NCBI GenBank assembly: GCA_964505635.1
Contig: CAZDIP010000002.1
Span: 165,843 to 229,842 of the forward strand
Direction of reading: 5' to 3'
From: an uncultured Candidatus Saccharibacteria bacterium
GTDB taxonomy: Bacteria; Patescibacteriota; Doudnabacteria; UBA920
Length of the DNA: 64,000 nucleotides
The notes under the pieces were generated by a model that was not told where the DNA came from, did not search any database, and was given only the letters and a program-made list of their open reading frames with translations. Shown here in pieces: positions 38,159 to 62,110 of the stretch. The translations under genes and the position numbers were made by a program. Every line of letters begins with the position of its first letter. The first letter of the stretch is position 1.

Positions 38159-38235
38159 GGGCGTGTAGCTCAGCTGGTTAGAGCACGAAGCTTATACCTT
38201 CGGGGTCCTAGGTTCAAATCCTAGCACGCCCACCA
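38159..38235 (+). tRNA. tRNA-Ile (anticodon UAU)
   Basis: cloverleaf: acceptor gggcgtg/cacgccc, anticodon loop cuUAUac, T-loop ttcaaat, encoded CCA. Confidence 0.8.
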
Positions 38236-49488: not shown

Positions 49489-49715
49489 TTTGTGGAGCGC
49501 CTAACCCCGCATAACTAGAAAACTCGTATGCGGGGCGTGGCGGGAAGTTTCCAATTCCCTTTGACAAATGAAAAAACTTTCACAAAATTGTGAAAGTTTT
49601 TTCATTGGAGCGGGTAATCCACCTACGCTAAAGCTTCGGCGGACAGGCGGGAAAAGTTCTCATTCCCACTGACAAAAAGAAAATGCCCGACCGTTGAGGT
49701 CAGGCATATTCTTTT
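49489..49715. repeat. two ~110-bp tandem repeat units, each beginning with a copy of the tRNA-Gly 3' end (TGGAGCG[GG/CC]TAA) and ending in a terminator-like hairpin
   Basis: unit1 49492-49600, unit2 49606-49715; shared GGCGGGAA(A)AGTT.C.ATTCCC..TGACAAA core; unit3 is the intact tRNA-Gly. Confidence 0.5.
49679..49715 (-). terminator. terminator hairpin downstream of tRNA-Gly
   Basis: atgcctgacc-tcaac-ggtcgggcat stem (with a G-U) followed by uuuuc on the minus strand. Confidence 0.45.
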
Positions 49716-49788
49716 GGAGCGGGTAACGGGAATCGAACCCGTGTCATTTGATTGGCAACCAAATGTACTACCATTGTACTATACCCGC
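49715..49788 (-). tRNA. tRNA-Gly (anticodon GCC)
   Basis: acceptor gcgggta/tacccgc, anticodon loop uuGCCaa, T-loop ttcgatt, CCA. Confidence 0.85.
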
Positions 49789-49789
49789 C

Positions 49790-50080
49790 TGGTGCCTCGG
49801 GTCAGAATCGAACTGACTACGCCAGCCTCTTCCAAGGCTTTTTTGGACTATATCATCATCCCGAAATTTTCGGGAGCTGGGCGCTTAGTACGGGATTATT
49901 GTTGGGACTCACCCGTTAGTCTCTACGCCTTTTCCGGCACCTTTGCCCGCCGGAACTTGGTTCGGGATTGTTATCTTTTAAGATAGTTTTTCCCGAGTTC
50001 ACCCAGTTTTTCTCAATCCACCTTGCGGCGGATGGCCCCAAAGATTTTAGGGCTGCGCTCTACCAATGAGCTACCGAGGC
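49790..50080 (-). tRNA. tRNA-Phe (anticodon GAA) interrupted by a group I intron in the anticodon loop
   Basis: 5' exon GCCTCGGTAGCTCATTGGTAGAGCGCAGCCCT (ends at U33); 3' exon GAAGAGGCTGGCGTAGTCAGTTCGATTCTGACCCGAGGCACCA; the spliced product closely matches canonical tRNA-Phe. Confidence 0.65.
49833..50048 (-). ncRNA. group I self-splicing intron (~216 nt)
   Basis: P1 between exon GCCCU and internal guide GGGGC (U.G at the splice site); P-like GCGGGCAAAGG, R-like GUAGAGACUAAC and S-like AUGAUAUAGUCC elements (P7 GACUA/UAGUC); terminal G before the 3' exon. Confidence 0.55.
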
Positions 50081-50105: not shown

Positions 50106-50182
<77 letters not shown>

Positions 50183-59503: not shown

Positions 59504-59764
59504 ATGAAACTGCTATTCTTGAAGGGCCGTTGTTTAAATAAAGTTACCGAATTTATGAACAATAAAACATCAAAAGAAAATGGTATCCAGGGGATTTCTG
59601 CCATTGCCGCGGAACACCGGGCTGAGTACAAAGTCATTAAGCACGATTTAGTAAGGCTTTTTTTATTGAATTTAGTTTACCTGGCAGCCGTGTTATTTTT
59701 GTATTCTTATGAGCAAAAAACTGGGTTTTTATCGGAATGGTTAAGCAAAATACTTAAGTTTTAA
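59504..59764 (+). CDS. small hypothetical membrane protein
   Basis: 86-aa ORF with one TM. Confidence 0.3.
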   Translation: MKLLFLKGRCLNKVTEFMNNKTSKENGIQGISAIAAEHRAEYKVIKHDLVRLFLLNLVYLAAVLFLYSYEQKTGFLSEWLSKILKF

Positions 59765-59849
59765 TAGCTCTTATTTTTGCCTCGGATTTCGGGGCTTTTT
59801 CTTTTATCCCAAGAATGTGATAGTATATATCATATACGATATAATTTTT

Positions 59850-60026
59850 ATGAGCCTCCGTCGAATACCACGGCTAAAGCCTCAGATGAAGGCGGAACGG
59901 ATTACTTATATCATTAACACATCCATACTGCTTCGGCCGGTTCCAAAGAAATTAGGCTGATAAACCCGCCGAAGCTTTAGCGAAGGCGGGTATGGATGGC
60001 ACACGGCTTTAGCCGTGGGAGTCCAT
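59850..60026 (+). ncRNA. structured 5' leader RNA of HTH-murA (riboswitch/attenuator-like, class unknown)
   Basis: long-range helix CCACGGCUAAAGCC (59866-59879)/GGCUUUAGCCGUGG (60004-60017), helix CAUCCAUAC/GUAUGGAUG, and mutually exclusive pairings UGCUUCGGC/GCCGAAGC vs CCCGCC/GGCGGG adjacent to the RBS GGGAG. Confidence 0.4.
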
Positions 60027-61538
60027 ATGACTGAACAAGAAAAAATCGGGCAGTTTGTTTTTCAAATAAGAGAACAAAAGGGCCTGACTCAATCAGAATT
60101 TGCAAAAAGGCTTAAAACCAGCCAATCGGCGGTGGCTCGCATGGAAAAGGGTCAACAAAATTTTTCTACCGAAATGCTGGCTAAAATCAGCGGAGTTTTG
60201 GGTAAAGATATAATCACCCTTTCCGGAGATTCCTTGAGTTTTAAAATTACGGGGGGATTTAAACTCTCGGGACGCGTTTTTACCAACGCCTCAAAAAACG
60301 CCGCTTTAGGCCTTTTGTGCGCTTCGCTGCTTAATAAAGGCGTAACAACTTTAAAGAACCTCCCAAAAATAGAGGAAATTTTTAGATTTATTGAGGTTTT
60401 GCAAAGTATTGGGGTATTGTTGAAATGGGATGGCGCGGATTTAATTATTAAACCCCCTAAAAGGTTTTTAATTAAGAATTTAGACAAGGATGCGGCTGTT
60501 AAAACCCGGAGTGTAATAATGTTGATGGGCCCCCTCGCGCATTTTGTTAAAAATTTTTCCCTGCCCTTTGCCGGAGGTTGCAAGTTGGGAGAAAGAACGG
60601 CAGCTCCCCACCTGCTCGCGTTGGAGTCTATGGGAGTTGAGGTTAAAACCGTTCACGATCATTATGAAATTACATGCGGAAAGCTTCGGCCGGCGGAGTT
60701 TGTTTTATATGAAATGGGAGATACTGTGACGGAAAATGCCATTATGGCCGCGGCGTTAATTCCGGGCAAGACTGTAATTAAGCTGGCCTCCAGTAACTAT
60801 ATGGTGCAGGATGTTTGTTTGTTTTTACAAGCCTTGGGGGTAAAAATTGAGGGTTTGGGAACATCCACTTTGGCCATACATGGTGTGCCGGAAATTAATA
60901 AAGACGTGACTTTTAGCGTTATGGAAGACCCGATTGAGTCAATGATGTTTCTTACCATAGCCGCTTTGACTGAGTCGGCGATTATAATAGAAAAGTGTCC
61001 GATTGATTTTTTGCAGATGGAATTATTCAAAATGCGAAAAATGGGGTTTAAATATAAAATACTCAAGAGCTATAAGTCAGCCAATAATTATACCAACTTG
61101 GCTGATATACAGACTTTTCCTTCCCGGCTTGTTGCCGCTGATGTAAAAATTCATCCCCTGCCTTCTAACGCAGGCATAAACATAGATAACTTGCCATTTT
61201 TTGTTCCCTTGGCGGCAAAAGCCGAGGGCAAAACCTTAATTCACGATTGGGTTTATGAAAACAGGGCAATATATTATTTAGAGTTAAATAAATTGCGCGC
61301 AAATGTTACCCTGTTAGACGCACATCGGGTTATAGTAGAAGGGCCGACTGAATTAAAGGCCGCCGAGGTTATTTGTCCTCCGGCTTTGCGGCCGGCTGCC
61401 GTGATTTTAATTGCCATGCTTGCGGCTAAAGGTACTTCCATTTTAAGAAATGTTTACTCAATTTCCAGGGGCTATGAAGATTTAGCCTCCCGCTTGGCAA
61501 AATTAGGAGCAAAAATTGAAGTTATAAAAGGAATTTAA
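60027..61538 (+). CDS. murA: UDP-N-acetylglucosamine 1-carboxyvinyltransferase with N-terminal XRE-type HTH domain
   Basis: N-terminal ~65 aa IGQFVFQIREQKGLTQSEFAKRLKTSQSAVARMEKG (Cro/C1 HTH); MurA core KITGGFKLSGRVFTNASKNAALGLL and the catalytic Cys loop FAGGCKLGERTAAPH. Confidence 0.85.
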   Translation: MTEQEKIGQFVFQIREQKGLTQSEFAKRLKTSQSAVARMEKGQQNFSTEMLAKISGVLGKDIITLSGDSLSFKITGGFKLSGRVFTNASKNAALGLLCASLLNKGVTTLKNLPKIEEIFRFIEVLQSIGVLLKWDGADLIIKPPKRFLIKNLDKDAAVKTRSVIMLMGPLAHFVKNFSLPFAGGCKLGERTAAPHLLALESMGVEVKTVHDHYEITCGKLRPAEFVLYEMGDTVTENAIMAAALIPGKTVIKLASSNYMVQDVCLFLQALGVKIEGLGTSTLAIHGVPEINKDVTFSVMEDPIESMMFLTIAALTESAIIIEKCPIDFLQMELFKMRKMGFKYKILKSYKSANNYTNLADIQTFPSRLVAADVKIHPLPSNAGINIDNLPFFVPLAAKAEGKTLIHDWVYENRAIYYLELNKLRANVTLLDAHRVIVEGPTELKAAEVICPPALRPAAVILIAMLAAKGTSILRNVYSISRGYEDLASRLAKLGAKIEVIKGI

Positions 61539-62110
61539 TGGACTTAATTACCTACATTTATAGCAATGAATTGTACGGGATTGTTTACGTGATTATGTTT
61601 TTTGGCATGTTTATTGATGCAAACTTGACCATACTAAGCAGTATATTTTTGTTTACCGAAAGCCATGGTATTTTTTCGCAGGCTATTTTTTTGCCTGTTA
61701 TTTTGGGAGGCTTTGCCGAGCAGTTTGTTTTGGTTTTTATTGGCTGGCACTTACGTAGTAAAGAAAAAATTGCAGTTTGGGCAGACAGGGTTGTTGGGAA
61801 ATACGACTCACATTTAACCGGGAATATTTTTCGTTCGCTTTTATTGTCAAAATTTGTTTTAGGGTTGCATCGCGCAGTGTTAATCCGCATTGGTATGTTA
61901 AAGCTTTCTTGGCAAGATTTTTTGAAAGCCACCCTGAAGTCAACTTTAATTTGGCTGTTTATTGTCGGTTTTTTAGGTTTCGCGTTTAGTAAATCCTATC
62001 AAATTTTGGCTGAATATTTTAATTATGCCGGCCTACTTTTGCTGACACTTTTTTTGGTATTTGTAATTTTGGAAATATTGGTTTCTAGAAAACTGAAAAA
62101 AGACATTTAA
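61538..62110 (+). CDS. DedA/VTT-like membrane protein
   Basis: multi-TM 190-aa protein, start overlapping murA stop. Confidence 0.4.
   Translation: MDLITYIYSNELYGIVYVIMFFGMFIDANLTILSSIFLFTESHGIFSQAIFLPVILGGFAEQFVLVFIGWHLRSKEKIAVWADRVVGKYDSHLTGNIFRSLLLSKFVLGLHRAVLIRIGMLKLSWQDFLKATLKSTLIWLFIVGFLGFAFSKSYQILAEYFNYAGLLLLTLFLVFVILEILVSRKLKKDI

Follow-up and report, generated by a model that had tools for sequence, protein, structure and literature searches.

Comparative analysis of a gene at positions 60027-61538 (forward strand) of a 64,000-nucleotide (nt) stretch of DNA from an uncultured Candidatus Saccharibacteria bacterium (contig CAZDIP010000002.1; hereinafter the window) suggests that its product, a MurA protein fused to an N-terminal helix-turn-helix (HTH) domain of the XRE family, is probably a trigger enzyme, in which MurA doubles as a DNA-binding autorepressor. 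Under the mechanism that we propose, the C-terminal domain of this HTH-MurA would be a catalytically competent MurA, that is, a UDP-N-acetylglucosamine (UDP-GlcNAc) enolpyruvyl transferase, and the N-terminal HTH domain, presumably as a dimer, would bind an 18-base pair (bp) palindrome with the family consensus TATATCATATATGATATA at the promoter of its own gene and repress its own transcription. In some lineages, a divergent murB gene or mur operon on the same short intergenic region would also come under repression by HTH-MurA. MurA, which is targeted by fosfomycin, carries out the committed step in the synthesis of peptidoglycan; the known forms of its control are post-translational, namely feedback by UDP-N-acetylmuramic acid (UDP-MurNAc) and, in Firmicutes, proteolysis by ClpCP, and do not include autorepression.

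The coding sequence is a single uninterrupted frame of 503 codons and a stop codon, with a Shine-Dalgarno sequence, GGGAG (60017-60021), 5 nt before the ATG at 60027. A preliminary description of this DNA, made from the sequence alone, had reported a Cro/C1-type HTH in the same frame as a complete MurA core with its catalytic cysteine, and both parts of this claim are borne out by profile searches and structural modelling. The N-terminal domain (amino acids (aa) 13-62; 60063-60212), with GLTQSEFAKRLKTSQSAVARMEKG at aa 19-42, matches the Pfam HTH_3 profile (PF01381) with an E-value of 8.3e-14 and a score of 51.8 bits, well over the gathering score of 23 bits. In the AlphaFold2 model (mean predicted local distance difference test score, or pLDDT, of 83.7), helices are predicted at aa 3-17, 22-29, 33-40, and 48-58, with the recognition helix at aa 33-40 (60123-60146) inside the motif T31-S32-Q33-S34-A-V-A-R-M-E. 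A poorly conserved linker (approximately aa 63-71; 60213-60239), which is modelled with low confidence around aa 60-69 and with a pLDDT below 50 at aa 63-67, leads to the enolpyruvyl transferase domain (aa 72-500; 60240-61526). The latter matches the Pfam EPSP_synthase domain (PF00275; aa 75-488, E-value 1.3e-47) and passes the cutoff of the NCBIfam MurA subfamily NF006873 (312.4 bits against 297). The closest solved structures are all MurA (5ujs, E-value 2.5e-55), and in Foldseek comparisons the model of the MurA body aligns with 1UAE and 5UJS at target-normalised TM scores of 0.84-0.91. Alignment with E. coli MurA, the reference sequence having been checked as identical to PDB 1UAE, indicates that K22, N23, R91, C115, R120, D305, R331, R371, and R397 (E. 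coli numbering) are all kept, and the catalytic Cys185 (codon at 60579-60581) is found within the motif FAGGCKLGERTAAPH (aa 181-195). Canonical MurA proteins (E. coli 1UAE, E. cloacae, and MurAA/MurAB of Firmicutes) have the same fold and the same catalytic residues, including the cysteine targeted by fosfomycin, but they contain no DNA-binding domain, and the structurally characterised ones are only 28-30% identical to the window protein (approximately 33-36% for the clade as a whole against canonical MurA, in a representative search of 1.84 billion proteins). A change of K160 to Glu was considered as a clade-specific loss of UDP binding and rejected, since Glu occupies this position in most canonical MurAs as well.

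The fusion is widespread among the relatives of the window protein. The same protein, residue for residue, is encoded in the 235-kb NCBI contig and in an independent Logan assembly (run SRR16481186), which confirms the continuity of the frame. Both domains are present in all 120 of the best database hits (66-76% identity, 499-535 aa), whose source names, where given, are Doudnabacteria or 'Patescibacteria group'. Furthermore, a scan of one genome per species recovered at least 547 relatives, and among the best 80 loci, which were those analysed, murA is fused to the HTH in 75. These fused loci range from Doudna-, Pacei-, and Saccharibacteria-type Patescibacteria to cultured Actinomycetota (Streptomyces, Nocardioides, and Knoellia), at 51-55% identity, HTH included. 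No separate HTH gene was found near the five unfused loci, so that a split gene was rejected as an explanation and the HTH appears to be truly absent from them; all five orthologues without the HTH keep the catalytic residues. Across the family, mean pairwise identity is 57% for the HTH and 60% for the enzyme, rises to 68-69% in the region of the recognition helix, and drops to 23-29% in the linker. As judged by these comparisons, the fusion is real and under selection, because both domains recur in 120 of the 120 best hits and in 75 of the 80 loci and because the HTH is conserved like the enzyme. The statement of the preliminary description that MurA is normally a stand-alone enzyme accordingly holds for the characterised MurAs but not for this clade, where fusion is the rule.

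When the MurA domains were placed in a neighbour-joining tree, the proteins from Actinomycetota (loci L046 and L053-L079) grouped as one clade, the sister of which is a low-GC group of Patescibacteria type (L037, L042, L044, L047, L051, and L080), with several members labelled Saccharibacteria. In this tree, which is midpoint-rooted only, the two together are nested inside the Patescibacteria-type diversity. Such a topology is compatible with HTH-murA having passed between Saccharibacteria and the phylum to which their hosts belong.

The candidate operator was found by lining up the upstream regions of orthologues, and its occurrences over 76 fused loci were counted under a symmetric scoring scheme. 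The palindrome, which also comes in the symmetric variants TATAGC..GCTATA and TATCTC..GAGATA, is present upstream of 60 of these loci, with 68 matches in 20.3 kb of upstream sequence as compared to 9 in 820 kb elsewhere, an approximately 300-fold difference; it was absent from all five unfused orthologues searched. Although AT-rich, the palindrome persists in the DNA of Streptomyces, Nocardioides, and Knoellia at about 70% GC, where it ends 10-12 nt before the ATG (the Streptomyces version, CATCTCATATCTGAGATA, is 11 nt ahead of it). Its end is no more than 15 nt from the start codon in 43 of the 60 positive loci, which suggests leaderless or near-leaderless mRNAs; a leader of more than 80 nt is found in six of the 60, the window included. 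In 25 of the 60 loci the 3' half of the palindrome is at the same time a -10-like hexamer, TANNNT.

Within the window, the palindrome takes the form TATATCATATACGATATA (59826-59843; inverted repeat I15) and lies within the only convincing promoter-like site ahead of HTH-murA. This predicted sigma-70-like promoter (59817-59845, forward strand), with 10 of 12 matches to the consensus, consists of a -35 box GTGATA (59817-59822), a 17-nt spacer, and a -10 box TATAAT (59840-59845); the operator candidate occupies the spacer and extends into the -10 box. On its upstream side, a consensus scan detected a terminator-like hairpin followed by a T-run (59779-59795, forward strand), which would end the unit of an 86-aa open reading frame (ORF; 59504-59764) and leave the murA transcription unit isolated. 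The preliminary description had called for a search for an operator palindrome upstream, and with up to 3 mismatches allowed this one is found a single time in the 64-kb window (the site has 1 mismatch; 0.01 such matches are expected). Since there is no second copy in the 64 kb, a wider regulon inside the window was rejected.

A further link between the HTH and the palindrome might come from covariation. Ser32 directly precedes the recognition helix, and its replacement (TTQS, STQS, TKQS) goes with the operator variant TATAGC..GCTATA (G5/C14) in 12 of 12 loci as against none of 55. We regard this covariation within HTH-MurA as weak support for recognition, for reasons given below. Two fused loci, L045 and L070, have a divergent recognition helix, SSISEVTKIENGESN, and no palindrome; they have in common another upstream sequence, TTGCTTTTTTGTAAAAATATAGC (upstream of positions 1268 and 373, respectively), possibly a re-specified operator. 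In locus L028, a palindrome, TATCTCATATATGATATA (681-698), is located 593 nt upstream of HTH-murA and directly before an ORF starting MAREAKPKYIVMCVGFTHSGKT, so that here the operator apparently controls a two-gene operon.

The reverse search, in which metagenome contigs were queried with the exact 18-mer, yielded at least 120 loci and extended the association to two other contexts. Among the 120 loci listed, HTH-murA adjoins the palindrome in 23 and murB (identified by the Pfam domains MurB_C and FAD_binding_4) in 8; seven of these eight murB genes are divergent, across the palindrome, from an HTH or HTH-murA gene. Likewise, among the orthologous loci, murB is divergent from HTH-murA in L017, L018, and L019, with the palindrome at the start of murB. 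In 16 of the loci listed, a Gp49-like toxin gene (HigB-type, PF05973) is located directly downstream of the palindrome, and in at least 8 of these 16 an XRE antitoxin with a homologous HTH (42-58% identical to that of HTH-MurA) is encoded approximately 450-495 nt beyond it. In one such locus (L108, 5232-5249), the identical palindrome is embedded in a perfect TTGACA-17-TATAAT promoter of the Gp49/XRE operon, and it recurs in the Gp49/XRE loci L109, L130, L132, L154, L155, L169, L172, L191, L197, and L198. HTH-murA and Gp49/XRE are unrelated architectures that have only the HTH subtype in common, and the presence of the operator in both links this type of HTH to the palindrome. The antitoxins carry a similar recognition helix, T-[ST]-Q-S-x-V-A-R-[IM]-E, but are proteins of about 100 aa paired with a toxin, whereas the window protein has a 430-aa enzyme instead and no Gp49 neighbour. 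A role of HTH-MurA as a type II antitoxin (a HigA-like XRE protein) was therefore rejected, given its 503 aa with an enzyme domain and the lack of any toxin family among the neighbouring genes. The shared module suggests that the HTH of MurA and its operator may have been recruited together from a Gp49/XRE module, or the reverse.

Some relatives appear to have lost enzymatic activity. In seven distant fused proteins (P0129, P0132, P0137, P0141, P0150, P0173, and P0248), C115, R120, R91, and R397 are all lost, and the same seven keep the HTH (TSQSAVARIEKGEQN) with the recognition helix almost unchanged. In all three lineages examined (L082, L083/L084, and L085/L086), the gene for this HTH-pseudoMurA (10001-11518 in L082, 10001-11536 in L083, and 9975-11477 in L085) lies inside a mur cluster. 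Transcribed divergently from it are a separate murA that remains catalytically intact and then murB, while downstream of it are ddl or mur ligase genes. In L082, the divergent operon is longer, beginning with mur ligase genes and ending with murA and murB. The divergent intergenic regions of these lineages, 29-71 nt long, contain the same palindrome. With the enzyme half decayed beside a second MurA, and the HTH and operator kept, regulation would be a selected function of these proteins. Furthermore, the coincidence of catalytic decay with an adjacent separate murA argues that the intact fusions are needed as enzymes. The HTH-pseudoMurA seems to be a former enzyme that was converted to a purely regulatory or sensory role.

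The known trigger enzymes BirA, PutA, and NadR combine an enzyme and a DNA-binding domain that represses genes of their own pathway, with ligand-dependent binding proven. HTH-MurA resembles them in that a metabolic enzyme and an N-terminal DNA-binding domain occur in one polypeptide, with an operator at the promoter of the gene itself or of its pathway; it differs in the enzyme (MurA), the class of HTH (XRE/Cro-C1), and the pathway (peptidoglycan precursors), and ligand dependence is in its case a prediction. As in trigger enzymes, the intact catalytic and DNA-binding domains are conserved together, and the comparative evidence places a predicted operator at the own and pathway promoters. The proposal of the preliminary description that the fusion suggests autoregulation or a coupling of precursor synthesis to gene regulation thereby gains comparative support, from an operator candidate at the own promoter in 60 of 76 fused orthologues in two phyla and in none of five unfused ones, common to murB and mur clusters, and found also at toxin-antitoxin promoters with a homologous HTH. 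A second parallel is BzdR of Azoarcus (NCBIfam PRK08154), in which an XRE HTH is joined to a sensor domain resembling shikimate kinase. It has in common with HTH-MurA the succession of XRE HTH, linker, and enzyme-derived domain, and the window HTH gives a weak match to PRK08154 (E-value 8.4e-06). The HTH-pseudoMurA relatives seem to follow the logic of BzdR, the enzyme fold being kept as a presumed sensor; the window protein differs in that it keeps all catalytic residues and is not merely a sensor, and the enzyme fold and regulon differ too.

Repression, rather than activation, is the predicted mode of action because the operator overlaps the -10 box and the spacer, and dimeric binding is predicted from the dyad symmetry of the palindrome. 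The ligand state of the MurA domain could, in addition, tune DNA binding, the candidate ligands being UDP-GlcNAc, phosphoenolpyruvate (PEP), and UDP-MurNAc, and if such tuning holds, precursor supply would feed back on transcription. We infer modulation by a ligand from the flexible linker, the open/closed transition of MurA, and the tight complexes of UDP-MurNAc with MurA (3su9, 3swd, 8d84); UDP-MurNAc, which MurA and MurB together produce, is a tight-binding inhibitor of MurA. This extension of autoregulation is put forward tentatively, as a possibility rather than an expectation. The same reserve applies to a broader reading that joins all of these threads: HTH-MurA could conceivably be a metabolite-sensing switch, with UDP-MurNAc as the likeliest ligand, for murA and in some lineages for murB and mur ligase genes, providing direct transcriptional feedback in Patescibacteria and in Actinomycetota including the MurA2 of Streptomyces; its regulatory module might derive from a Gp49/XRE toxin-antitoxin or phage-type repressor, its enzyme half might in places have decayed to a sensor, and the gene might have moved between Saccharibacteria and their actinobacterial hosts.

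Over residues 6-503, which take in the HTH, the Streptomyces members of the family share 51-52% identity with the window protein, and in their loci the same palindrome is found 11 nt ahead of the start codon. The gene is found near that of aconitase, as SCO5998 adjoins SCO5999 (AcnA; PMC12161575), and the SigB-dependent promoter of SCO5998 (PMC8346170) is recognisable approximately 350 nt upstream in several Streptomyces loci. By synteny and promoter match, the Streptomyces member looks like MurA2 (SCO5998 / sven5810 / vnz_28735). MurA2 has been treated as a second UDP-GlcNAc transferase, with BldM-WhiI, SigB, and perhaps DmdR1 as regulators (PMC4125116; PMC8346170; PMC12161575); in particular, SCO5998 is a BldM-WhiI target (PMC4125116; PMC11005364). 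In a full-text literature search, no mention of the HTH or operator was found in the MurA2 papers. A DmdR1 iron box has been predicted in the SCO5998-SCO5999 interval, but its identity with the Streptomyces palindrome was rejected because the published site, CTAACTTAGCCTTACCTTA, differs.

Several observations weigh against autorepression by a catalytically competent HTH-MurA. The window operator is 183 nt from the ATG as compared to 15 nt or less in most relatives, and a good palindrome is wanting in 16 of the 76 fused loci, some of which have a divergent recognition helix (L045 and L070) or truncated upstream sequence. As many as 74 of the 120 exact-palindrome loci listed have no recognisable partner, which indicates that this AT-rich sequence can also arise by chance or be used by other proteins. 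The covariation at Ser32 is mostly confined to one clade and amounts to about two evolutionary events; moreover, the change of S32 to Thr as a general determinant of the G5/C14 variant was rejected because Gp49-associated antitoxins with TTQS adjoin the unmodified palindrome. Canonical MurA is monomeric, whereas a dimer is expected for palindrome binding. On the enzymatic side, the window protein scores 309.2 bits with the TIGR01072 equivalog, under the cutoff of 392.7, and E. coli D369 is replaced by Ala throughout the HTH-MurA clade. Finally, our search of the literature found no experimental DNA binding, repression, or enzyme activity for any member of the family.

These observations bear on three other readings, which differ in the role that they assign to each of the two domains. 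HTH-MurA might be only an enzyme, with the HTH as an interaction, localisation, or vestigial module and the palindrome bound by another factor or simply part of the promoter. The doubling of the 3' half as a -10-like hexamer in 25 of the 60 loci and the many exact metagenome palindromes that have no HTH partner would fit such a reading, as would the fact that the DNA binding of HTH-MurA is predicted from comparison. We nevertheless consider it unlikely: a bystander HTH would hardly show its strongest conservation across phyla in the recognition helix, or be accompanied by a palindrome that none of the five orthologues without the HTH possesses, that persists in GC-rich actinobacterial DNA, and that co-occurs with a homologous HTH in the unrelated toxin-antitoxin context; it would also be hard to see why catalytically dead relatives still keep both the HTH and the operator.

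Alternatively, the enzyme might transfer enolpyruvate to a substrate different from UDP-GlcNAc, as a MurA paralogue like NikO, with regulation directed at another pathway. Passage of the NCBIfam MurA subfamily cutoff speaks against this reading, as does the far lower score with NikO (84 bits as opposed to 191 bits for MurA), and an operator common to murB, which encodes the next step of UDP-MurNAc synthesis, and found also inside mur ligase clusters points to the same pathway. Moreover, a non-essential paralogue would hardly be expected to persist so universally in the reduced genomes of the Candidate Phyla Radiation (CPR). To be set against these arguments are the 28-30% identity to structurally characterised MurAs, the score under the equivalog cutoff, a series of clade-specific changes (D369A, S93V, V163D, and, in the loop that follows C115, RT(V/A)xP in place of RPVDL), and the presence in Streptomyces of another murA besides MurA2 (PMC12161575). 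On balance, a different substrate seems quite improbable.

That the window protein acts solely as a transcription factor, with its MurA-like part serving just to sense a ligand as in BzdR and another MurA providing catalysis, is suggested by the pseudo-enzyme versions that exist in relatives beside a separate murA. For the window protein itself this appears very unlikely: all checked catalytic residues are intact in it and in close relatives, the 64-kb window contains no second MurA-like gene, an enzymatic role is implied by the retention of the catalytic residues in the five orthologues without the HTH, and decay is seen where a separate murA is adjacent, so that the intact versions are apparently needed as enzymes. 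The fusion as a product of a sequencing or assembly frameshift that joined a small XRE gene to murA is excluded, because two independent assemblies give the identical protein and hundreds of independent genomes, including those of Streptomyces, Nocardioides, and Knoellia isolates, share this architecture without any stop codon or change of frame.

The fusion is not new sequence space: the family is abundant in databases, where its members are routinely annotated as plain MurA, and the Streptomyces member is a named gene. No description of HTH-MurA, of its operator, or of MurA as a trigger enzyme was found in the full-text literature; nor did we find there the HTH as a functional feature, the conservation of the operator, its connection with murB and mur clusters, the derivatives with a decayed enzyme domain, or the kinship of HTH and operator with toxin-antitoxin modules. 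If autorepression by HTH-MurA is correct, a MurA equipped with both a repressor domain and an operator of its own would match the supply of cell-wall precursors to demand in a new and very direct way. Such control would work both in the reduced, transcription factor-poor genomes of Patescibacteria and in Streptomyces, where murA2 is developmentally regulated. The catalytically dead relatives constitute a natural separation-of-function series, and the operator held in common with toxin-antitoxin modules would provide a concrete example of an enzyme acquiring a ready-made regulatory module. Furthermore, the hypothesis is directly testable in a genetically tractable organism, Streptomyces.

Between the operator/promoter and the ATG, the window has a predicted 5' leader of about 180 nt (59846-60026, forward strand) that is strongly structured (minimum free energy -66 kcal/mol, z = -3.97; none of 200 shuffled sequences folds as well). 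Its 5' end, UAUGAGCCUCC, pairs with the region of the Shine-Dalgarno sequence and start codon through an inverted repeat (59863-59881 / 60005-60023). No Rfam family was matched by the leader at gathering thresholds or at E <= 10, and BLAST detected no similarity to the leaders of relatives; a known riboswitch was rejected on these two grounds. As far as these comparisons go, the leader is specific to this genome and outside the conserved mechanism, and it may add lineage-specific translational control or be an insertion. A 17-nt stretch of the leader, CCCGCCGAAGCTTTAGC (59966-59982, forward strand), recurs exactly at 49626-49642 on the reverse strand (BLAST E-value 5.5e-04), beside a tRNA-Gly gene and a group I intron, and could be due to chance or represent a small repeated hairpin element.

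Downstream of HTH-murA is a 190-aa ORF for a multi-pass membrane-like protein (61538-62110, forward strand), in which no Pfam family was detected at E <= 1e-3. It is probably co-transcribed and translationally coupled with HTH-murA, given that its ATG overlaps the murA stop codon (TAATG). The neighbours of HTH-murA comprise, besides this small membrane ORF, genes for a DUF4446 protein, a bactofilin, a DAGK-like protein, another membrane protein, and RlmH. Elsewhere in the window, a group I catalytic intron (RF00028, 61.3 bits; 49823-50058, reverse strand) is located between tRNA-Gly (49715-49788) and tRNA-Val (50106-50182) and may lie within a tRNA gene missed by ARAGORN. The window also contains a tRNA-Ile gene with the anticodon UAU (38159-38235, forward strand), a tRNA that represents an uncommon bacterial way to read AUA instead of by a lysidine-modified CAU tRNA.

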